Shown here: positions 11,666 to 39,249 of the stretch, one piece after another
Layout of the letters: each line of letters starts with the position of its first letter
How positions within the stretch are numbered: position 1 is the stretch's first letter
DNA from: Nitrospira sp.
GTDB lineage: Bacteria; Nitrospirota; Thermodesulfovibrionia; Thermodesulfovibrionales; SM23-35
Direction: 5' to 3'
DNA length: 39,425 nt
Assembly: GCA_016873575.1 (NCBI GenBank)
Contig: VGWY01000001.1
Location: 1-39,425, forward strand
Notes under the pieces: generated by a model
Databases searched by the model: none
What the model saw: the letters and a program-made list of their open reading frames with translations, nothing else
What the model was told of the DNA's origin: nothing
Translations under genes and position numbers: made by a program

Positions 11666-11694
11666 CATTCTTTTAAAAACTGATTTATACTGAA

Positions 11695-11788
11695 GTTATC
11701 CCTGGGGGAGGCTGAAAAGCCTGAGAGTCCCAATATAAGCGGGAGACCCCACGAACCTGATACGGATAATTCCGGCGTAGGGAATGGG
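11695..11788 (+). promoter_or_regulatory. TPP (THI-box) riboswitch
   Basis: ctgggggaggctgaaaagcCTGAGAgtccc...gagACCCcacGAACCTGATacGGATAATtCCgGCGTAGGGAAtggg matches the TPP riboswitch core and lies directly upstream of thiS. Confidence 0.9.
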
Positions 11789-11796
11789 AAGGTAGA

Positions 11797-11830
11797 CCGT
11801 ATCCCTTCAGGGATGCGGTTTTTTGTTTTT
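11797..11830 (+). terminator. Riboswitch expression-platform intrinsic terminator
   Basis: 9-bp stem ccgtatccc/gggatgcgg with loop ttca, followed by ttttttgttttt. Confidence 0.7.
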
Positions 11831-12031: not shown

Positions 12032-12086
12032 TAGGGATTCTTTGATGATTTGCTCCCTGGTTGAGCATGTCATTGTTGCCCCTTTT

Positions 12087-12155
12087 GTCATTCCCGCGAA
12101 AGCGGGAATCCAGATCAAGAAAAACAACTGGATTCCGCATCAAGTGCGGAATGAC
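12087..12155. repeat. Family A hairpin repeats (pair, mutually inverted)
   Basis: gtcattcccgcgaaagcgggaatcc (12087-12111) and ggattccgcatcaagtgcggaatgac (12130-12155). Relatives are at 17277-17299 and 25675-25760. Confidence 0.8.
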
Positions 12156-12165
12156 AGCATTTTTA

Positions 12166-12211
12166 CATGGATGCTGGTTGAAAGCTCCGACTTTCAGTCG
12201 GAGAGCTTCAC
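12166..12211 (+). repeat. Family B hairpin repeat, copy 1
   Basis: catggatgctggttgaaagctccgactttcagtcggagagcttcac is near-identical to 30164-30205 and 30235-30269. Confidence 0.85.
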
Positions 12212-12243
12212 TGAATCACATTTGTGAAATTAAGGAGACCAAT

Positions 12244-13014
12244 ATGGATGATAAATTGATTATTAAAGGAATTGAATTTAAATCACGGCTCTGGGTAGGA
12301 ACAGGAAAATATAAGGATTTTGAGGAGACAAAGAGGGCTGTTGAGGCTTCAGGATCTGATGTTGTGACCGTTGCTGTGAGGAGGGTAAATATTATTGACA
12401 GAAAGTCCGAAAACCTTCTCGATTATATTGACCCTAAAAAATACAAAATACTTCCGAACACTGCAGGTTGCTACACCGTAGAGGATGCACTGAGGTATTC
12501 AAGACTCGCACGGGAAGCAGGCATCTCAGACCTTATAAAGCTTGAGGTAATCGGAGATGAAAAGACACTCTTTCCGGATGTATGCGGATTACTGAAAGCC
12601 ACGGAGATACTTGCAAAGGAAGGACTTATTGTCCTTCCATACACAAATGATGATCCTGTAATTGCAAAAAGGCTTGTAGATGCAGGTGCTGCTGCAGTTA
12701 TGCCGCTTGGTGCACCGATTGGTTCTGGCCTTGGAATCAGGAATCCATACAACATAAAGATAATCCTTGAAACATTGAATATCCCGGTTATTGTAGATGC
12801 AGGTGTAGGAACTGCATCTGATGCAACCATAGCGATGGAGCTCGGTTGTGATGCTGTATTAATCAATACAGGCATTGCAGGTGCTAAGGATCCGATTGCC
12901 ATGGCAGAGGCTATGAAACATGCTGTTATTGCAGGCAGACTTGCGTATAAGGCTGGAAGGATTCCGAAAAGATTATATGCAACTGCAAGCAGTCCGATTG
13001 AGGGAATGCTCTAA
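12244..13014 (+). CDS. thiG: Thiazole synthase
   Basis: [19 protein letters not shown]...LPNTAGC...[19 protein letters not shown] lies before ATG 12244. The track start at 12061 runs through repeats A and B. Confidence 0.9.
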
Positions 13015-13018
13015 GGCA

Positions 13019-13654
13019 GTGAATAGTGAACAGTTACAGGATTTAAAACTTTATTTAATAACTGATAGGAAGTTATTTAACGCAAATTGTTCATTATACA
13101 TTGCACTTGAAGATGCGCTTTATACAGGCGTGAAAGCTATCCAATTAAGGGAAAAGGATTTGCAGACGAGAGAATTACTTGATATGGCATACTGGATGAA
13201 AGAGCTGACAGGGGAATATGGTGCACAATTGTTTATTAATGACAGGGTTGATGTTGCACTTGCTGTTGAAGCAGATGGGGTACATCTCGGACAGAACGGT
13301 ATCCCTGCGCATGCAGTGAGAAACATATCAGGTGATAGACTTCTCATCGGGGTATCGACTCACAGTATCAATGAAGCTATGCAGGCAGAAAAAGATGGAG
13401 CAGATTTTATAACCCTCGGTCCGATTTACCAGACTCCGTCTAAACTCAAGTATGGCAAACCGATTGGTATTGATACCCTCAGGGAAGTAAAATCAAAGGT
13501 AGCTATACCTGTTCTTGCAATCGGAGGGATAAAACTCAATAATGTCGAAGAAGTAATGGGTGCAGGTGCTGATGGTGTGGCATTGATAACTGCAATCCTT
13601 ACAGCAGAGAATATAAAGAAAACGACTGAGTGTTTTATTAGGTTAGTAAAATGA
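13019..13654 (+). CDS. thiE: Thiamine-phosphate synthase (GTG start)
   Basis: LYLITDR...IQLREKD...INDRVDVALAV.ADGVHLGQ...GPIY.T.SK. The in-frame GTG at 13019 lies just after the thiG stop, whereas the track ATG at 12920 would overlap thiG by 95 nt. Confidence 0.85.
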   Translation: MNSEQLQDLKLYLITDRKLFNANCSLYIALEDALYTGVKAIQLREKDLQTRELLDMAYWMKELTGEYGAQLFINDRVDVALAVEADGVHLGQNGIPAHAVRNISGDRLLIGVSTHSINEAMQAEKDGADFITLGPIYQTPSKLKYGKPIGIDTLREVKSKVAIPVLAIGGIKLNNVEEVMGAGADGVALITAILTAENIKKTTECFIRLVK

Positions 13655-13668
13655 AACCTTATGCATTA

Positions 13669-13769
13669 GAAAGACACAAAGTATAATGAAAATGTCATTG
13701 CGAGGAGGTCGTTACGACCGACGAAGCAATCTCAAAGATGAGATTCTTCGCTATGTTTAGAATGACAGG
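13669..13769 (+). repeat. Family C long hairpin repeat, copy 1 (partly decayed)
   Basis: aaagacacaaagtataatgaaaatgtcattgcgagg...cgacgaagcaatctc...gagattcttcg...gaatgacag is alignable to 31422-31530. Confidence 0.8.
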
Positions 13770-13785
13770 AAAAGGAGTATTTCGG

Positions 13786-15072
13786 GTGACAAGGATAGAA
13801 GTGGCAAAGAAGGGAATTATTAGTGATGAATGTAAGGAGGCTGCGCTTTATGAAGGCATATCTCCTGAGAGACTTGCTCATGATATTGCACAGGGTGTAA
13901 CGGTAATTCCGAAAAATATGAATCACGACATAAAGCCAATTGGCATAGGAAGGGGTCTGAGGACAAAAGTCAATGTCAATATAGGGACTTCAAAGGACAG
14001 GGTCTCTTTTGATGAAGAGATGGAAAAACTCGATGTTTCGATAAAATTTGGGGCTGACGCTGTCATGGACCTCTCAACAGGAGGACCTATTAAGGACATG
14101 AGGAGACTTCTTTTAAGAAAATCTCCTATCCCGGTCGGGACAGTACCAATATATGAGGCTGCAGTAAGGGCTGTGGATGCCCATAAGATAATAGCAAAGA
14201 TGACTCCTGACGACATCTTCAATGTAATAGAAGAACATGCAGAAGAAGGGGTAGATTTTGTCACAGTTCATTGCGGATTAACAAGAAAGGCTGTTGAGAG
14301 ATTGAAAGATGAAGGCAGGGTTCTTGACATTGTAAGCCGTGGTGGTTCATTCCTTTTAGAATGGATGATTTACAATGACAAAGAAAATCCATTCTATGAA
14401 CATTATGATAGACTCCTCGAAATTGCAAAAAAATATGATGTAACGTTAAGCCTCGGAGATGGGTTACGTCCTGGTTGCCTCGAGGACGCAACAGATAGAA
14501 GCCAGATTGAGGAATTACTGACCATAGGAGAGTTGAGAGATAAAGCTTTAGAAGAAGGAGTTCAGACAATCATTGAGGGCCCAGGCCATGTTCCTTTAAA
14601 CCAGGTAGAATTGAACATAAAGATTCAGAAAGAGATATGCAAAGGTGCTCCTTTCTATGTGCTGGGACCGCTTGTGACTGACATTGCTATGGGTTATGAC
14701 CATATTGCAGCAGCTATAGGTGGAGCCATTGCAGGAGCAGCAGGCGCTGATTTTCTCTGTTATGTCACACCTGCAGAGCATATCAGGCTTCCCAATATCG
14801 AAGATGTAAAAGAAGGACTTATAGCTTTAAAGATAGCAGCCCATGCAGCAGATATTGCAAAGGGAATCTTAGGTGCAATAGAACTTGATAGAAAGATGGC
14901 AAGATGCAGGAAAAACCTCGACTGGAATGGTCAGATTGCATTAAGCCTCGATCCTGACAAGGTGCGTAAATGGAGGGCAGAGGTACCTCCCACAGAGGAT
15001 GAGGTTTGCTCGATGTGCGGGGAATTCTGTGCAATAAGAACTGTAGAGAAGGCACTGAAGAAAAAGGGATGA
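13786..15072 (+). CDS. thiC: Phosphomethylpyrimidine synthase (GTG start)
   Basis: VTRIEVAKKGIIS... matches short-form ThiC N-termini. C-terminal CSMCGEFCAIR is the Fe-S motif. AAAGGAG lies 8 nt before GTG 13786. Confidence 0.9.
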   Translation: MTRIEVAKKGIISDECKEAALYEGISPERLAHDIAQGVTVIPKNMNHDIKPIGIGRGLRTKVNVNIGTSKDRVSFDEEMEKLDVSIKFGADAVMDLSTGGPIKDMRRLLLRKSPIPVGTVPIYEAAVRAVDAHKIIAKMTPDDIFNVIEEHAEEGVDFVTVHCGLTRKAVERLKDEGRVLDIVSRGGSFLLEWMIYNDKENPFYEHYDRLLEIAKKYDVTLSLGDGLRPGCLEDATDRSQIEELLTIGELRDKALEEGVQTIIEGPGHVPLNQVELNIKIQKEICKGAPFYVLGPLVTDIAMGYDHIAAAIGGAIAGAAGADFLCYVTPAEHIRLPNIEDVKEGLIALKIAAHAADIAKGILGAIELDRKMARCRKNLDWNGQIALSLDPDKVRKWRAEVPPTEDEVCSMCGEFCAIRTVEKALKKKG

Positions 15073-15830
15073 AGACAGCTCTTACTATGGCTGGCACTGA
15101 CCCAACAGGTGGGGCAGGGCTGCAGGCAGATTTAAAGGTCTTCAGGGCATTTGATGTACACGGGCTTTCTGTCGTATCTGCCATCACTGCGCAGAACACA
15201 GAAGGTGTTGATTCTTTCTTTCCTGTCAATAGAGATTTTTTCGAGAAGCAACTTCATATACTTCTCTCTGATATTAGACCTGATGCAATAAAAACAGGGA
15301 TGCTTTATAGCAGATGGGCTATTGAAATTATTTCCAGGATTGTAAAGGAATATTCGCTAAGCAATTTTGTTATTGATCCTGTCACAATCTCTTCATCAGG
15401 CACGATCCTTGTTGAGGATGGGACTTTAGATGAATTAAGAGAAAAACTCTTCCCGCTTTCAAAGGTAATCACACCAAATATATATGAGGCGTCTCTTTTT
15501 ACAGGTATCATGATTGAGGATGAAAAGGATATGGAAAAAGCTGCTCAGGTATTGAAAGATATGGGGCCTGAGGTCGTTGTCATTACCGGTGGTCACCTCG
15601 AAGAAATAGCTTTAGACCTTTATTGTGACGGTGACTTTCATACGATAGAGTGTAAAAAGATAGAGGGTGAATATCATGGGACTGGATGTGCATTTTCTGC
15701 TGCTGTCACTGCTCTCCTTGCCCTTGGCCATACGCCTTTTGAATCAGTAAAAAAGGCAAAGGAATTCGTAGAGAACGCAATAGAAAAAGCTTACCATCCT
15801 GGCAGAGGTATGGGGCTACTTAATTTGTAA
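15069..15830 (+). CDS. thiD: Hydroxymethylpyrimidine/phosphomethylpyrimidine kinase
   Basis: ALTMAGTDPTGGAGLQADLK...GTGCAFSAA. There is an ATGA overlap with the thiC stop. Confidence 0.9.
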   Translation: MKTALTMAGTDPTGGAGLQADLKVFRAFDVHGLSVVSAITAQNTEGVDSFFPVNRDFFEKQLHILLSDIRPDAIKTGMLYSRWAIEIISRIVKEYSLSNFVIDPVTISSSGTILVEDGTLDELREKLFPLSKVITPNIYEASLFTGIMIEDEKDMEKAAQVLKDMGPEVVVITGGHLEEIALDLYCDGDFHTIECKKIEGEYHGTGCAFSAAVTALLALGHTPFESVKKAKEFVENAIEKAYHPGRGMGLLNL

Positions 15831-30487: not shown

Positions 30488-30706
30488 GTGATCAGGAACG
30501 TTCATTTTCTTGAAAACATGGAAAGAGAGTTTATCTCAAGACAAAAGCTTTCCTATAAAAAGTGTTTGCAAATATTCGAGTCAATGTGGCATGAAGGGAT
30601 AAAACTCGGGGTATTGCCTCCTAAAGAACCGCTTGAAGGAATTGATGTTGATATAAAAATTGCTAAAATCATTCATTCGTGTTTGAAGAGCTCCTCGCAA
30701 AAATAG
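30488..30706 (+). CDS. Small partner protein of nucleotidyltransferase module 1 (putative antitoxin-like)
   Basis: 62-72 aa (GTG 30488 or ATG 30518). It overlaps the next gene by 28 nt. The tail LGVLPPKEPLEGIDVDIKIAKII recalls small proteins I have seen upstream of minimal nucleotidyltransferases. Confidence 0.45.
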   Translation: MIRNVHFLENMEREFISRQKLSYKKCLQIFESMWHEGIKLGVLPPKEPLEGIDVDIKIAKIIHSCLKSSSQK

Positions 30707-31230
30707 GTACCGTTCTTAATAAATACAAGCTCCCCTATATGATTATCGGGGGGCAGGCTGTATTGCTTTACGGAGAACCCCGTCTTACCAGAGATATCGA
30801 CATTACCCTCGGAGTTGATATCGATTTTCTTGATACACTTTTGGATGCTGTTCAAGAGCTTTCCCTAAAACCCCTCCCTGAAGACATACAATCATTTGTC
30901 AGACAGACCATGGTGTTGCCTGCCCTAAATGAAACGACCGGGATAAGAGTGGACTTTATCTTCTCATTTACTCCTTTTGAAACTGAGGCTATCAAGAGGG
31001 CAAGAAAAATAACCCTTATGGATCAGGCGGTCTCTTTTGCATCACCGGAAGACGTTATCATACACAAAATATTCGCTGGAAGGCCACGCGACATCGAAGA
31101 TGTCAAATCAATTCTTCTCAAAAATCCGGAGATCGACATACAATATATCCGGAAATGGCTGAAAGAATTTGATGAATCCTCTGATGAGAAGATATTCTTA
31201 AAGTTATTTGAAGAAATATTGAAGAGATAA
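30679..31230 (+). CDS. Pol-beta-superfamily nucleotidyltransferase (minimal NTase, GTG start)
   Basis: IIGGQAVLLYGEPRLTRDIDI fits the hG[GS]-x13-D-x-D NTase signature. 183 aa. Confidence 0.6.
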   Translation: MFEELLAKIGTVLNKYKLPYMIIGGQAVLLYGEPRLTRDIDITLGVDIDFLDTLLDAVQELSLKPLPEDIQSFVRQTMVLPALNETTGIRVDFIFSFTPFETEAIKRARKITLMDQAVSFASPEDVIIHKIFAGRPRDIEDVKSILLKNPEIDIQYIRKWLKEFDESSDEKIFLKLFEEILKR

Positions 31231-31271
31231 TAGATGACAGATGACAAAACAAGGAAATCGCCAATTGTATG

Positions 31272-31358
31272 TCTGTCTTCTGTGCTCTGTGCTCTGAATA
31301 TCTGGCTTCTTACTTCTGTTATCTGTACTCTGAAACAAGAGGCATAGGGGGGATAAAT
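31272..31358 (+). repeat. Family D repeat, copy 1 (87 nt)
   Basis: tctgtcttctgtgctctgtgctctgaatatctggcttcttacttctgttatctgtactctgaaacaagaggcataggggggataaat is about 95% identical to 32535-32620. Confidence 0.9.
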
Positions 31359-31421
31359 ATAAACAATTTGGCATATCTGATATAATTTACACAGAATTAC
31401 AAAATGAAACATACATGTCTC

Positions 31422-31530
31422 AAAAGACACAAAGTACAATGAAACTGTCATTGCGAGGAGTCCACATAAGGCGGACGACGAAGCAATCCCAAAAGAAGAG
31501 ATTGCTTCGCCCGCGGCTCGCAATGACAGT
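31422..31530 (+). repeat. Family C long hairpin repeat, copy 2 (intact)
   Basis: Outer stem ctgtcattgcgag/ctcgcaatgacag and inner stem gaagcaatc/gattgcttc. The leader aaagacacaaagtacaatgaaa is shared with copy 1. Confidence 0.85.
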
Positions 31531-31546
31531 TTAAAGGTATTTTCAG

Positions 31547-31825
31547 GTGAAAACTATTATTGAAAAAAGATTATTCTGGTTTTTAAAAGAGGGAACCGAG
31601 CTTGATCTTTCAGATAAGGCACAGCTTGATATGTATGTCCAGCAGGTACTTACAAGAGGAAAGACTTCTGATATCAAAAGACTTTTCAGGATAATTGTCC
31701 CCTCTGTTTTTCACGACTCTTTCACCCGCATAAAAAGCTTTTTACCCAAAGAGGTAAAAAGGTTCTGGGAGGAAGATATTGGAGATTCTCACCAGTCTGC
31801 AAAGAAAGATACTCGTTCTCTTTAG
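31547..31825 (+). CDS. Small partner protein of nucleotidyltransferase module 2 (GTG start)
   Basis: 92 aa. LFWFLKEGTELDLSDKAQLDMYVQQVLTRGKTSDIKRLF resembles the small domain often found next to AbiEii-type NTases (from memory). It overlaps the next gene by 47 nt. Confidence 0.45.
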   Translation: MKTIIEKRLFWFLKEGTELDLSDKAQLDMYVQQVLTRGKTSDIKRLFRIIVPSVFHDSFTRIKSFLPKEVKRFWEEDIGDSHQSAKKDTRSL

Positions 31826-32450
31826 CAACGTGCCTGATAAAGATGCCTTTTACCTTACAGGTGGTACAGCACTATCGGCTTTTTTTATTAAACATAGAAT
31901 CAGCCATGATCTGGATTTCTTTACAAATATTGAAGAACTTATTCTGCCTTTCAGTCAAAAGCTTGAAGCATCCTTGAAAAATGATAATCTCGTCGTTGAA
32001 AAATTGCGGGGATTCCATTCCTTTGTAGAACTTACCGTAAGTTCATCTGAAGATTCAACAATAATTCATATCGCCCTGGATTCTCCTTTTAGGTTTGAAC
32101 AGCCATTCGAATCTCAAGAAATTTCAGGTATAAAAGTAGATAGCCTGATAGACATTGCCAGCAATAAGCTCCTTGCTCTTTTCGGGAGAGCTACATTAAG
32201 AGATTTCATAGATGTCTATTTTCTTGCAAAAGAATATTTTGATAAAAAATATCTTATTGAAAAAGCTGCAAAAAAAGATCCGGGCTTTGACCTCTATTGG
32301 CTTGGAGTAGCAATGGAGAGGATTAATGAATACCCTGACGACTCTCCAGATATGCACCCCCTCACACGCCCGTGTTCAATGAGAGAACTTAAGGACTTTT
32401 ATAGTATCTGGAGAAAAGAGATTTTGAAAGAGATTACTAAAGGTGAGTAG
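31779..32450 (+). CDS. AbiEii/AbiGii-type nucleotidyltransferase (toxin-like), TTG start
   Basis: LTSLQRKILVLFSN....FYLTGGTALSAFFIKHRISHDLDFF is a typical AbiEii N-terminus with the GG...D-x-D NTase motif. Confidence 0.65.
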   Translation: MEILTSLQRKILVLFSNVPDKDAFYLTGGTALSAFFIKHRISHDLDFFTNIEELILPFSQKLEASLKNDNLVVEKLRGFHSFVELTVSSSEDSTIIHIALDSPFRFEQPFESQEISGIKVDSLIDIASNKLLALFGRATLRDFIDVYFLAKEYFDKKYLIEKAAKKDPGFDLYWLGVAMERINEYPDDSPDMHPLTRPCSMRELKDFYSIWRKEILKEITKGE

Positions 32451-35134: not shown

Positions 35135-35914
35135 TCAATTACCAATAAGTTCCATGAGAGTCTGTGAGTCTTTATATCCAGGAATAATCCTTCCGTCAGG
35201 GAGGATTATAGCAGGCGTGCCTGATATCCCGAGTCTTTCGGCGAGTCTTATATTTCCTTCTATGGCAGAGGTCTTACATTTTGGTTTGGGCATCGGTTTT
35301 TTCTCATATGCATCTTCAAGGATAGCAAGGGATTTTTCACAGACAATGACTTCTGATACTTCTTGCGCCCCCGAGTGCATCTTCAGCGGATACATCTTTA
35401 TATAAAAGGCAATATCCTTTCTCTCATTGATGACCTTCTTCATCTCCTGATGAAGTTTTGCGCAGTATGGTCAATAAGGGTCAGAAAAAACAATCACCTT
35501 TTTTGATGCATCTTTATCCCCCATGAGAATGGCATCATCAAGGGGAATCTGGGATATGTCAATTTTATTGATTTCAGAAAGTCTTTCCTGAGAGAGGTTC
35601 CTTTTTGTTCGAATCGCAAAGATTGCACCGGTTATCAGGTGTTGCTTTGAATAATCAATGTATGTCAACCCCTTTTTGCCACTTATTTCGATATACACCT
35701 CCCACAACCCCTTGATAGGGCTTGATTTTATATCCATCACCTTCAGGTTATTCGCCATATCTTTTAATAATACTGACGCCTCGTCATTGCTTAGCGTATG
35801 ACATTTTGAACAGTCCTGACCCTTGTCGCTAAAGGCATACGAATATGGTATAGGCAATAGCAACAACCAACCCACGATTGAGAAAAGTATTATAGTCAGA
35901 TTTTTATAGTTCAT
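35135..35914 (-). CDS. Periplasmic DsbC-like thiol:disulfide isomerase, predicted selenoprotein (Sec at TGA 35471-35473)
   Basis: Track ORFs 35471..35914 and 35135..35443 share a frame. The joined sequence VIVFSDPY-U-PYCAKLHQEM aligns with E. coli DsbC VFTDITCGYCHKLHEQM. It has a signal peptide, a DsbC dimerisation domain, a structural Cys pair and the cis-Pro loop GTPAII. A SECIS-like hairpin lies downstream. Confidence 0.8.
35438..35455 (-). promoter_or_regulatory. Candidate bacterial SECIS hairpin
   Basis: The mRNA reads CUUCAUC-AGGA-GAUGAAG, a perfect 7-bp stem with a G-containing tetraloop. The stem starts 16 nt after the UGA. Confidence 0.6.
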
Positions 35915-36135
35915 TCTGGTATCGCTGTTATTTTTACAATCATGTCAATTCTCTCTTTTGCATCTTCTTCATCCAACTTCTGGATTGCAAAGCCAGCATG
36001 AACAAGGACATAATCCCCTACCTCGAGTTCATTTTCCATGAGGAGAATGCTTATCTCCCGCTGTGCTCCGTAAACATCAACAACTGCTCTATTGCCTTCT
36101 ATACTGATTATTTTTGAAGGAACCGCAAGACACAT
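35911..36135 (-). CDS. hypC: Hydrogenase assembly chaperone HypC/HupF family
   Basis: MCLAVPSKIISIEG...GDYVLVHAGFAI. 74 aa. Confidence 0.9.
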   Translation of the reverse strand: MCLAVPSKIISIEGNRAVVDVYGAQREISILLMENELEVGDYVLVHAGFAIQKLDEEDAKERIDMIVKITAIPE

Positions 36136-36154: not shown

Positions 36155-36670
36155 TCATTCAGATGTTTTTAGTTCATACTGGATTAATTCAATAATCCTT
36201 GGAATCTTTGTCTTAATTTCAGGGGAAAGTTCCATCCCCATTTTCAGGGATTTCGGTTCAATTCCTATGACTGTTGTTTGAGGGGTTTTGCCAAACAAAC
36301 CGGACAAATTGATAACCTCCAATATGCCAATCTGATGTACCGATGTCTTGAACCCGGACGGACAGCTCTGAACATCATTGATATCAAAGCGATAGATAGA
36401 ACCTGGTATTCCCCCTCCTTTTACTGCATCAATTACTATTAACCTGTCTGCCTCCGTGATAATGTTTAAAAGACGAAAACCATCAGTTCCACCCTCCACA
36501 ATTGAGACTTCAGGGGGAAAATCCAATCTTGAAAGTTCATTCACTACATGAACTCCTATCCCTTCATCAGATAATAAAATGTTGCCAACTCCAAGGATAA
36601 CAACTTTTTGGGGGGAGATGGTTTCTCCCCCCGTTTTATATGATGGAGCATGTAAAGTCAACTGACTCAT
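36155..36670 (-). CDS. [NiFe] hydrogenase maturation endopeptidase (HyaD/HybD family)
   Basis: VILGVGNILLSDEGIGVHVV...IVIDAV. There is an ATGA overlap with the large-subunit stop. Confidence 0.85.
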   Translation of the reverse strand: MSQLTLHAPSYKTGGETISPQKVVILGVGNILLSDEGIGVHVVNELSRLDFPPEVSIVEGGTDGFRLLNIITEADRLIVIDAVKGGGIPGSIYRFDINDVQSCPSGFKTSVHQIGILEVINLSGLFGKTPQTTVIGIEPKSLKMGMELSPEIKTKIPRIIELIQYELKTSE

Positions 36671-38229
36671 TCCACAATGAACTTTCTTATTTCGTTCGTC
36701 TTGGGATCAATGATATGAATCGCACAAGCCAGACAAGGATCGAATGAACGGATTATCCTAACCACATTAATCGGGTTTTCAGGATCAGGCACTGGAGCAC
36801 CAATCAGGGCTTCCTCATATTGACCACGCGTTCCATTTTCACACCGAGGCGAGGCATTCCAGGTAGAAGGCACAACTGCCTGGTAATTCTCGATCTTCTT
36901 GTTCTTTATCTTGATCCAGTGTCCCAAGGCACCTCTTGGTGGCTCAAAGAATCCAACACCCATACCGCTTTCTGGTGGATCCCAATGTTCAGTGTCGTGG
37001 ATCTTAAAGCCTGGTTTTGTCATTGCAGTCTGCAGATCATCAAGCCATTTGTAGCAGGCATCTACGATAAGCCTTGTTTCGATAGCACGTGCAGCATGAC
37101 GGGCGACTGCACCAGGTTTGGCACCTTTTTTGACCAATCCGATCAGGTCAGGATTTTTAGCGATAATCATTCTTGCTAATGGTCCGACCTCCATGGCCTT
37201 ACCGTCATAACGAGGGGCCTTGACAAAGGAATAAGCATCTTTTTTGTCGAGGTTAAATATCTGCTCACCATCATATGGATGCACAGGCTTATTTTCTTTA
37301 TACCAGGCATGTTTTACAGATTCAGTTATCTTCTTTGGATCGAATGGGTCAACTTTGATGTTTGCTGGATTTAAGCCCACAATTACACCTGCAGGAAAAA
37401 CAAGGTCTTTTCCATCAGAATCTTTTTCAAATGCACCATATGAAAGGTAATTGTAATGACCGCCACCTACACCCATCTCAGCAAGTTTCCATAATGGGCC
37501 TGTCCCGAAAGCAAGGACATCAGGGATATAGACCTCATTGATAAACTTGGCCTGTTCGTCAAGCATAGTACGGAAACGGGCTACCTGATTAATATCGGGA
37601 TATGATGTAACACCGCCTACAACAATATTCTGATAATGAGGAGTCCTGCCACCCCATATAGCACCCATATTCCTTGCCTTTGCATGCATCTTCAGGGCAT
37701 CAATATAATGCTTGACAGCAGTGATAACTATTTCTGGATCTTTCACACAGAAGTCATCTGGTTCATACCGTGGAGTAAGCGGAAAAGTATCTTTACTCTT
37801 CACTAAACCTATAATCTTATCCTTGACAGCAAGCAGGTCTTTATCCTTCCCTTTGTAGTTGGCAATAGCCATGATATCAATGTAATCAAGTGCACTCAAC
37901 TGGTAAAAATGAAGTGGGTGATCATAAATGAACTCCGCACCCATCACAAGATTTCTAATGAGTGTGCCACCCCATGGAACCTTTGCCCCAAAGGCTGCAT
38001 CTAATGCACGGGCAGAGCATACTTGATGAACACTATAGCAAACACCACAGAAACGGCTGGTTACAAAGGAGGCGTCACGAGGGTCTTTCCCTGTCAATAA
38101 GGCTTCAAACCCTCTGGCCATGGTACCACTACTCCAGGCATTTGTGACCTTACCTTTATCTATTTCTACTTCTATCTTCAGATGTCCTTCGATCCTGGTA
38201 ATTGGATCAATTGTAATTTTCTTTCCCAT
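36667..38229 (-). CDS. [NiFe] hydrogenase large subunit (group 1, Cys-type)
   Basis: ITRIEGHLKIEV, N-terminal RFCGVCYSVH and C-terminal DPCLACAIH, followed by a 15-aa cleavable tail. Confidence 0.95.
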   Translation of the reverse strand: MGKKITIDPITRIEGHLKIEVEIDKGKVTNAWSSGTMARGFEALLTGKDPRDASFVTSRFCGVCYSVHQVCSARALDAAFGAKVPWGGTLIRNLVMGAEFIYDHPLHFYQLSALDYIDIMAIANYKGKDKDLLAVKDKIIGLVKSKDTFPLTPRYEPDDFCVKDPEIVITAVKHYIDALKMHAKARNMGAIWGGRTPHYQNIVVGGVTSYPDINQVARFRTMLDEQAKFINEVYIPDVLAFGTGPLWKLAEMGVGGGHYNYLSYGAFEKDSDGKDLVFPAGVIVGLNPANIKVDPFDPKKITESVKHAWYKENKPVHPYDGEQIFNLDKKDAYSFVKAPRYDGKAMEVGPLARMIIAKNPDLIGLVKKGAKPGAVARHAARAIETRLIVDACYKWLDDLQTAMTKPGFKIHDTEHWDPPESGMGVGFFEPPRGALGHWIKIKNKKIENYQAVVPSTWNASPRCENGTRGQYEEALIGAPVPDPENPINVVRIIRSFDPCLACAIHIIDPKTNEIRKFIVE

Positions 38230-38244
38230 TTATGCTCACCTCCT

Positions 38245-39249
38245 TTAGCTATTCTCTTTTTTGAACAATCCGGCTTCTCTCATTGCCCATATATTCTTTG
38301 AGGCCTCACTCTCAGCGGTATAAAGAGGTGTCATTTCAGCATAAAAACCAGGCTCAGCACATCCCATACAAACAGCACCGCAATCAATACAGAAATTTAT
38401 TCCGTCATTCCACCTGCGAATAGGGCAATCTGAGTTCGTCATTGGTCCCTTGCAACCCTTCTTAAATAAACACCATTCCTTTTGTGCTGGATCGTTCCAA
38501 TCAATAAGAAATCTGCCAGCATCGAAATGGGCACGTCTTCTGCAATTATCATGAATTGTCTCTTTAAAGTACATTACAGGACGACCGATTTTATCCAGCT
38601 CTGGTACCTTTCCTGTTGTTAAGAAATAGAGAACTGTTCCTGCCAGATGATCTGGATGAACAGGACAGGTAGGAAGGTTAATTACTGCCTTTCCTAAAAG
38701 AGCTTTATTAAGCCCTATACCTTTAGAAGGGGTAGCTGCAGGGATACCGCCATAAGTAGCACAGGCACCAACCGCAATAATTGCTGCTGCATTCTTGGCA
38801 GCTTCCTCAAGAATTGCTTTGAAAGGACGTCCACCAACCATACAGAAGCGGTCATCAGCAGATGGAACTGAACCTTCAACAATCAAGACATAGCCGCCAT
38901 CCTTTACAGTATCATGGTAAGCCTTTTCTGCGAGATCGCCTGCTGCAGCCATTGCTGTTTCATGATACCTGAGAGATATTTTATCAAGAAGAATTGAAGA
39001 AGCACGGGGGTGAAGAATCTGGGTAAACGATATAGTACATCCTGCACAATCCTGTCCCTCGAGCCATATTACAGGTGGTTTCTTCGATGCAGCCTCCATT
39101 GCATGGGCAATCCCGGCTGCAAATTCCAGTTCTGAGAGGCCAAGGACTGCTGCTGTTGCAGCACAATACCTCAGGAAGTCTCTTCTGTTTATTCCATGAG
39201 TTTCTATGATCTCAAGGAATTCCTTACTTACGACATCCTCTTCCTTCAT
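38245..39249 (-). CDS. [NiFe] hydrogenase small subunit, Tat-exported, no C-terminal membrane anchor
   Basis: Twin-arginine signal INRRDFLRYCAATAAVLG...AHA. PVIWLEGQDCAGCTIS. Distal Fe-S Cys clusters. The C-terminus is hydrophilic. Confidence 0.95.
   Translation of the reverse strand: MKEEDVVSKEFLEIIETHGINRRDFLRYCAATAAVLGLSELEFAAGIAHAMEAASKKPPVIWLEGQDCAGCTISFTQILHPRASSILLDKISLRYHETAMAAAGDLAEKAYHDTVKDGGYVLIVEGSVPSADDRFCMVGGRPFKAILEEAAKNAAAIIAVGACATYGGIPAATPSKGIGLNKALLGKAVINLPTCPVHPDHLAGTVLYFLTTGKVPELDKIGRPVMYFKETIHDNCRRRAHFDAGRFLIDWNDPAQKEWCLFKKGCKGPMTNSDCPIRRWNDGINFCIDCGAVCMGCAEPGFYAEMTPLYTAESEASKNIWAMREAGLFKKENS

Follow-up and report, generated by a model that had tools for sequence, protein, structure and literature searches.

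Introduction

Does a TGA codon in the middle of a dsbC-like gene terminate one protein and leave a second one behind it, or is it read as selenocysteine (Sec) within a single, larger protein? The question is raised by a 39,425-nucleotide stretch of DNA from Nitrospira sp. (contig VGWY01000001.1, assembly GCA_016873575.1), referred to below, at its whole length, as the window. On its minus strand, positions 35135–35914 form a single frame of 260 codons with one internal break, the TGA at 35471–35473, and the frame terminates at a second, genuine stop TGA at 35135–35137. The listing of open reading frames (ORFs) cuts it into ORFs of 147 amino acids (35471..35914) and 102 amino acids (35135..35443), both in the same frame of the minus strand; between the two lie the TGA and nine sense codons (PYCAKLHQE). 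The GenBank entry, a metagenome-assembled genome (MAG) named "Nitrospira sp.", likewise contains two hypothetical proteins, MBM4135243.1 and MBM4135242.1. We propose that the two ORFs are one gene, which probably encodes a periplasmic disulfide isomerase or reductase of the DsbC type with a UGA-encoded Sec in place of the attacking cysteine. From the comparative analysis of sequences, we estimate the probability of this reading at about 0.88.

A single gene of the DsbC family

At the break, the joined translation reads ...KKVIVFSDPY*PYCAKLHQEMKKVI..., and the residues flanking the TGA are VIVFSDPY-[TGA]-PYCAKLHQEMKKV. The complete gene (35135..35914, minus strand, as are all its parts given below) is predicted to encode a 259-residue selenoprotein precursor with one in-frame UGA and the final stop TGA. 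The precursor starts with a predicted signal peptide of the Sec type (the secretion pathway, not the amino acid), MNYKN-LTIILFSIVGWLLLLPIP-YSYA, at 35834..35914. The signal peptide was read from the sequence, with cleavage before F28, a nearly invariant residue.

The Pfam search was made on the joined protein with a cysteine at the TGA position. DsbC_N (PF10411, 38.5 bits at a cutoff of 25), the dimerisation domain, matches amino acids 50–108 (35591..35767) in the upstream half, and Thioredoxin_2 (PF13098, 67.4 bits), the catalytic domain of the thioredoxin fold, matches amino acids 136–254 (35153..35509), bridging the TGA. A sequence search of the PDB yielded DsbC of Yersinia, Salmonella and E. 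coli at 2e-17 to 5e-15 (4npb, 2e-17; 1eej, 5e-15) over amino acids 55–257, again across the TGA, and the DsbG structures scored more weakly, at 1e-4. Thus the homology spans both halves of a single frame, in agreement with the initial annotation, which had taken the two ORFs for one gene split by the ORF track. Moreover, by the Pfam domains and the PDB alignment neither half is a complete protein, as that annotation had also held when it considered neither half functional alone: given the alignments and the placement of the domains, the upstream ORF lacks the catalytic domain, and the downstream ORF, counted from M158, lacks the active site.

In the NCBIfam ranking of the joined protein, DsbC comes first, followed by DsbG. 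The threshold of the DsbC equivalog, NF008129, is missed (79.5 bits at a cutoff of 215), and the model of the DsbG-like selenoprotein, NF041057, is absent from the NCBIfam matches at E <= 0.01. The joined protein is a distant member of the DsbC family and not an equivalog of E. coli DsbC. A database search yielded 737 homologues; the best 120 of them are all full-length, about 254 amino acids, and are mostly labelled as "DsbC family protein" of Nitrospirota or Thermodesulfovibrionales. Below, homologues with a cysteine codon in place of the TGA are called Cys-forms, and those with the TGA, U-forms. As a proxy for the structure we used the Cys-form P0001, taken as the closest Cys-form for modelling (66% identical). 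Its AlphaFold (AF2) model has a pLDDT (predicted local distance difference test) of 88, and the best Foldseek matches of this model are DsbC, then DsbG, DsbP and ScsC.

Two alignments, of 22 and 50 sequences, were considered. The TGA column is cysteine in every Cys-form aligned, and this column is the first position of the CxxC motif, where the initial annotation had also put the TGA. C151, C192, C213 and P234 do not vary at all, and D145, P146 and T233 vary little or not at all. C151 (35462..35464) would be the resolving residue of UxxC. C192 (35339–35341) and C213 (35276–35278), both 3' of the UGA (35276..35341), form the putative structural pair and align to the region of the second cysteine pair in E. 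coli DsbC. T233–P234 (35213..35218), which makes up the cis-Pro loop of the thioredoxin fold, aligns with GTPA in DsbC. The match to PF10411 and the invariance of C192, C213 and P234 support the dimerisation domain, the structural cysteines and the cis-Pro loop as they had been recognised initially.

Conservation of the TGA codon

Six contigs, each from a different sample or assembly, have the 147-codon ORF with the same DNA, down to the TGA. In a 94% identical locus, L007 (MAG GCA_020062705.1), there are 47 substitutions; the TGA is kept, and neither a frameshift nor a new stop has appeared.

More distant relatives were collected by scanning with a degenerate DNA pattern, [IV][IV]F-x-D-P-x-TGA-x-x-C-x-x-L-H-x-[DE]-x-x-x-V. 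Matches were obtained in 117 stretches from species-representative genomes and in at least 120 metagenome contigs (237 loci). By our own estimate, a pattern of about 47 bits applied to about 1.2e12 positions should produce fewer than 0.1 chance matches (about 0.01 in the genome collection), and therefore the matches observed are more than chance. All 237 are DsbC homologues, comprising 210 unique sequences. The 117 genome stretches come from virtually nothing other than MAGs of the Nitrospirota/Thermodesulfovibrionales, with a few that are probably mis-binned. Carriers of the TGA-containing gene include the complete genomes CP070669.1, CP070737.1 and OY970295.1 and three MAGs of Ca. Sulfobium (L036, L088 and L114). 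Following the TGA, about 111–113 codons are open in all 237 loci where the contig allows.

The sequence 3' of the TGA is under purifying selection at the protein level: for codons 13–60 the proportion of non-synonymous differences (pN) is 0.29, versus a saturated proportion of synonymous differences (pS) of 0.83. Coding behaviour is also seen in the four codons that separate the UGA from the hairpin described below, with pN of 0.14 versus pS of 0.68. The residue at +1 is proline in 210/210 unique U-forms, encoded by all four CCN codons, and it is followed by an aromatic residue and then by cysteine. These patterns argue that the downstream part is translated. As judged by this comparison, the TGA is a family trait of this type of DsbC.

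Several MAGs have a pair of DsbC paralogues with the TGA, each on its own contig: L025 and L039 in VGWX01, L019 and L042 in JAMCVZ01, L051 and L077 in JBFMCP01, L063 and L079 in JAJYIF01, and L009 and L082 in JBGQLV01. No Cys-form paralogues were found within the fetched loci.

The hairpin downstream of the UGA

The putative selenocysteine insertion sequence (SECIS) is an 18-nt hairpin at 35438..35455, within codons L154–K159. It has a 7-bp stem, CUUCAUC/GAUGAAG, and the tetraloop AGGA (consensus NGGA). It begins at the 16th nucleotide after the UGA, that is, with a 15-nt spacer, and is present in both the minimum free energy (MFE) and the centroid folds of the window sequence; the position and the perfect pairing are those given in the initial annotation. 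When RNAalifold was applied to 210 U-form sequences, this 7-bp hairpin was the only structure predicted.

Codon usage in the hairpin was counted in the 210 unique U-forms, with positions numbered from the UGA. The lysine at +5 is AAA in 179/180, the leucine at +6 is CTT in 207/210, and the lysine at +11 is AAG in 207/210, while CAT for the histidine at +7, GAG for the glutamate at +9 and ATG for the methionine at +10 are each found in 210/210. Codon +8 is always CNG, and its middle base, the first nucleotide of the loop, is free. At the same time, every synonymous codon is in use at V+13, D+19, F-5 and K+18. Both G residues of the loop, 27–28 nt from the U of the UGA, are invariant. The value of pS is 0.042 for codons +5 to +12, compared to 0.83 for codons 13–60, 0.68 for codons 1–4 and 0.79 upstream. 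CTC at L+6 occurs in three sequences only, and all three of them (3/3) have GAG at +11; the pair in the stem is changed from U-A to C-G at the cost of a Lys-to-Glu substitution. Selection on the hairpin at the RNA level is strongly supported by these frozen synonymous sites, the compensatory CUC/GAG change and the single consensus structure. Since the same TGA and a nearly invariant hairpin recur in more than 200 related sequences from the Nitrospirota, we consider the Sec-DsbC arrangement real.

The conservation exceeds the 7-bp stem (35435–35458 in the window, and all U-form loci): the wobble A of the preceding lysine codon is kept in 100%, and the following codon is AAG in about 96%. These bases just outside the stem are unable to pair canonically with each other.

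U-forms and Cys-forms

When 173 U-forms and 113 Cys-forms are placed on a neighbour-joining tree, Sec and Cys are intermingled among the branches, and the state has changed at least 31 times. Such intermingling is typical of Sec/Cys families. The nearest relatives of the window protein represent both states, L060 among the U-forms (72% identity) and P0005 and P0001 among the Cys-forms (66–68%). The peptide LHQEMKK is present in only 29 of the 99 Cys-form proteins that match the motif search, the rest having many substitutions at these freely varying residues, and LH[QLRP]EMK is present in all U-forms.

At the DNA level, eight Cys-form genes were compared. The hairpin is lost in five of them by changes such as CTC, CTG, CAC, AAA and M-to-I/L. 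In the other three, the exact hairpin CTTCATCAGGAGATGAAG accompanies a TGC codon (L246, 416–1180; L247, 3001–3765; L251, 3001–3756), and these genes may carry a 'fossil' SECIS from a recent Sec-to-Cys conversion.

The gene of P0001 is directly followed by ResB and CcsA, of the System II cytochrome c biogenesis, and by another thioredoxin-like gene (L246, 1193–3847). Linkage to System II was considered as a general feature and rejected, CcsA being found nearby in only one of the 237 U-loci.

Decoding of the UGA and alternative explanations

The following scheme may be suggested. The UGA at codon 148 (35471..35473), at the attacking position of U-x-x-C, would be bypassed as a stop, with the 18-nt hairpin in codons L-H-Q-E-M-K serving as a bacterial SECIS that recruits the SelB-GTP-Sec-tRNA(Sec) complex to the ribosome. 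The product would be a secreted protein with a dimerisation domain and a thioredoxin fold, having Sec148-Pro-Tyr-Cys151 as its active site. In the periplasm, the selenolate would attack substrate disulfides to form a selenylsulfide, Cys151 would resolve the latter, and regeneration of the enzyme would fall to a membrane reductant of the DsbD/CcdA type.

Several observations weigh against decoding of the UGA as Sec or narrow what the hairpin can say about it. As a single sequence, the hairpin has an unremarkable energy (z = -1.3), and since this MFE z-score is not significant, comparative data are needed as evidence. The comparison itself is partly constrained, as the search pattern fixed the first two bases of codons +6, +7 and +9; it left free the wobble bases as well as codons +8 and +10 to +12, and what is observed there is therefore unbiased. 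Three of the eight Cys-form genes, among those closest to the window protein, keep the exact hairpin, and hence its presence alone has no discriminating power. The initial annotation had proposed a covariance model of the bacterial SECIS as a check, and this check gave no support: no Rfam SECIS family matches at the gathering threshold in the whole window or at E <= 10 in 35300–35600. Rfam models of bacterial SECIS elements are gene- or clade-specific. Further, the window and 1.43 Mb of fetched loci yielded no selA, selB, selC or selD and no tRNA-Sec. In particular, ARAGORN detected no tRNA-Sec in the window and 245 loci fetched, and the Pfam annotation of 30 window genes contains no selA, selB or selD and no further selenoprotein; the other genes of the window are housekeeping ones. 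Finally, it is from sequence comparison that we infer the incorporation of selenium and, likewise, the binding of SelB, the dimeric state, the redox partner and the substrates.

Because the window has neither sel genes nor a tRNA-Sec, support for the Sec machinery comes from the literature at the level of the lineage only. Complete sets of selA/B/C/D were reported in Thermodesulfovibrio genomes (PMC5389517), and an overlap of selC and selB in the Nitrospirae is noted by two reviews.

Three other explanations of the TGA may be considered. The codon is one base away from TGC and TGT and the source is a metagenome-assembled genome, so that a DsbC gene inactivated by a point change, or an error of the assembly or consensus, would be conceivable for a single sequence. 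However, six independent assemblies agree on the TGA, the 94%-identical L007 keeps it in the absence of other lesions, and it recurs in 237 diverged orthologues whose downstream frames are intact and under selection; the pseudogene or error reading is effectively refuted. If, on the other hand, the TGA is a true stop, there are two genes, as in the GenBank annotation, and the C-terminal fragment would start at the ATG of codon 158, with AGGAG as its ribosome-binding site. Indeed, all U-forms share the ATG at +10, and AGGAG lies just 5' of it, but the two abut with zero spacer, which is unsuitable for initiation, and the compensatory CUC/GAG change maintains the stem rather than a ribosome-binding site. 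Moreover, the CxxC motif would be missing entirely from a fragment that starts at M158, and the thioredoxin fold from the upstream one. Since the codons from the TGA to the hairpin show coding pN/pS values (0.14 versus 0.68), and the nine codons from the TGA to the ATG are conserved as coding, with proline in 210/210, termination at the TGA with a fresh start at M158 is disfavoured and, in our opinion, very improbable.

The third explanation retains the SECIS and SelB but changes the amino acid. The UGA would be recoded by the same route, wholly or partly as cysteine, by a tRNA(Sec)-like selC* tRNA(Cys), giving either an ordinary CxxC DsbC or a mixture of Sec- and Cys-containing proteins set by the selenium supply. 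Thermodesulfovibrio and probable Nitrospirae contigs were reported to contain genes for selC* tRNA(Cys), and in deltaproteobacteria the form with the UCA anticodon reads UGA as cysteine (PMC5389517); besides, the frequent Sec/Cys switching in the DsbC family shows that cysteine is functionally tolerated. Yet the genomes with selC* tRNA(Cys) also possess the complete Sec apparatus, and the opal-anticodon selC* with its dedicated cysteinyl-tRNA synthetase (CysRS*) was described for the Desulfobacterales and not for the Nitrospirae (PMC5389517). In the window and the fetched loci, no selC* tRNA(Cys) was detected. A TGY codon would be a cheaper way to encode cysteine, and it has evolved repeatedly in this family. 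As tRNA(Sec)-like tRNA(Cys) has been described in these groups (PMC5389517), we retain a small possibility that some of the UGA is decoded as cysteine. Incorporation of Sec is the reading that we prefer.

The hydrogenase operon

In the window, dsbC is preceded on the minus strand by four genes. The closest is hypC (35911..36135, PF01455), whose stop overlaps the start of dsbC in the tetranucleotide ATGA (35911–35914), an overlap that suggests translational coupling. Upstream of hypC are the genes for a hydrogenase maturation protease (36155–36670), the [NiFe] large subunit (36667–38229), with the C-terminal DPCLACAIH containing cysteine and not Sec, and the small subunit (38245–39249), with a twin-arginine (Tat) signal (RRDFLR). 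The operon lacks a gene for a cytochrome b or c partner of the hydrogenase.

In this lineage dsbC closes a periplasmic [NiFe]-hydrogenase operon as its final cistron; the rest of the family has it as a stand-alone gene. The hydrogenase-linked arrangement was observed only in the window, in L007, which was fetched separately, and in L060, one of the 237 pattern loci. A tblastn search with the window HypC, maturation protease, large and small subunits found no hydrogenase gene in the other 236 pattern loci, and clustering of the neighbours of the U-form loci revealed no conserved partner gene. Hydrogenase linkage was thus rejected as a family trait. Since the arrangement is confined to these three loci, the link is a feature of the lineage. 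The initial annotation had spoken of a hydrogenase-linked form of DsbC; this linkage is real in the window, L007 and L060, and is no property of the family.

The N-terminal CxxCH motif

The mature N-terminus contains a conserved CSKCH (35798..35812, minus strand), which has the form CxxCH of the haem c attachment motif. It is situated about 8 residues past the predicted cleavage site of the signal peptide, and none of the aligned homologues departs from C35, C38 and H39. Of the U-forms, 150/196 possess the motif, as do 118/120 Cys-forms (P0001–P0120, the best 120 of the 737 homologues); its distance to the active site is fixed, the commonest spacing being 113 residues ahead of the Sec. The literature was searched for DsbC proteins that bear their own CxxCH, and nothing specific came up. 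The motif might bind haem or serve as a second redox pair. Given the coupling of dsbC, in the window lineage, to a hydrogenase operon with no cytochrome partner, one might imagine that haem c is attached here and that a DsbC with both haem and Sec draws electrons from the oxidation of H2, directly or via the haem. We consider this doubtful and quite unlikely. If true, it would make the protein a hydrogen-driven periplasmic reductase of disulfides (or of polysulfides or selenylsulfides) that works without DsbD.

Other features of the window

On the minus strand at 2514–2959, tRNA-Ile(GAT) (2883–2959), tRNA-Ala(TGC) (2677–2752) and 5S rRNA (2514–2630) follow each other directly. This row has no 16S rRNA ahead of it and no 23S rRNA separating tRNA-Ala from 5S, and position 2968 is the start of a divergent rpsF-like gene. 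The row represents an rRNA locus that is unlinked or rearranged, or else an artefact of the MAG assembly. On the plus strand, an ordinary thiamine pyrophosphate (TPP) riboswitch (11694–11801, 63.8 bits in Rfam) is located 5' of the thiamine biosynthesis genes thiG, thiE, thiC and thiD (about 12061–15830), and two adjacent genes at 30679–32450 encode nucleotidyltransferase or AbiEii-like toxins of a type IV toxin-antitoxin family.

Relation to known proteins and selenoproteins

With DsbC of the E. coli type (1eej, 4npb, 4i5q) the predicted selenoprotein shares the DsbC_N domain and the thioredoxin fold, the position of the active site, the second cysteine pair, the cis-Pro loop and the signal peptide. 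It differs in having Sec, as we propose, for the attacking cysteine, in the additional N-terminal CxxCH, in its anaerobic host from the Nitrospirota and, in the window, in its place as the last gene of a hydrogenase operon. The identity is about 23%, as measured on the P0001 model.

The catalogued UxxC selenoproteins with the thioredoxin fold comprise the "thiol:disulfide interchange protein" of PF13098 (Geobacter, Syntrophus), DsbG-like (NF041057/PF13462) and DsbA-like proteins. Hence the novelty implied by the initial annotation had been over-estimated. The PF13098 selenoprotein (reference WP_011366075.1), compared here by description only, shares with the window protein the PF13098 domain, the UxxC motif and the computational nature of the evidence. 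The TGA pattern matched no Geobacter or Syntrophus genome; the pattern is strict, and so the missing Geobacter match is uninformative. The DsbG-like selenoprotein is also a periplasmic Dsb-type protein with the thioredoxin fold and Sec at the first position of CxxC. Unlike it, the window protein has no NF041057 match at E <= 0.01, and is closer to DsbC structures (2e-17) than to those of DsbG (1e-4). A 2026 review mentions neither DsbC nor members from the Nitrospirota among selenoproteins, and the deep-Sep paper has no relevant mention.

As for the hairpin, it resembles the canonical bacterial SECIS of the E. coli fdhF type in its position within the coding region just 3' of the UGA and in the conserved G of the apical loop. 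In models of the bacterial SECIS the loop lies in the range of 16–37 nt, and the distance of 27–28 nt observed here falls within it. In contrast to the fdhF type, the candidate element is very short (a 7-bp stem with NGGA and no bulged U), is nearly invariant across more than 200 genes, and has no match among the SECIS families of Rfam.

No full-length entry annotated with U was found among the best 120 of the 737 database matches, despite the existence of the 72%-identical U-form. As gene callers split the gene, the family is systematically mis-annotated in more than 100 species-level genomes of the Thermodesulfovibrionales/Nitrospirota. Since UxxC families are already present in published catalogues, we place the DsbC-type selenoprotein among them: it is a real and fairly ordinary addition to the known UxxC selenoproteins, large and currently mis-annotated. 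The general picture of selenoproteins is left unchanged by it. What is gained is a large, well-supported DsbC-type addition to the periplasmic selenoproteome of anaerobes. Its compact, invariant 18-nt candidate SECIS could serve as a search model, and the dense switching between Sec and Cys, including the Cys-forms that still bear the hairpin, makes the family useful for studying the gain and loss of Sec.

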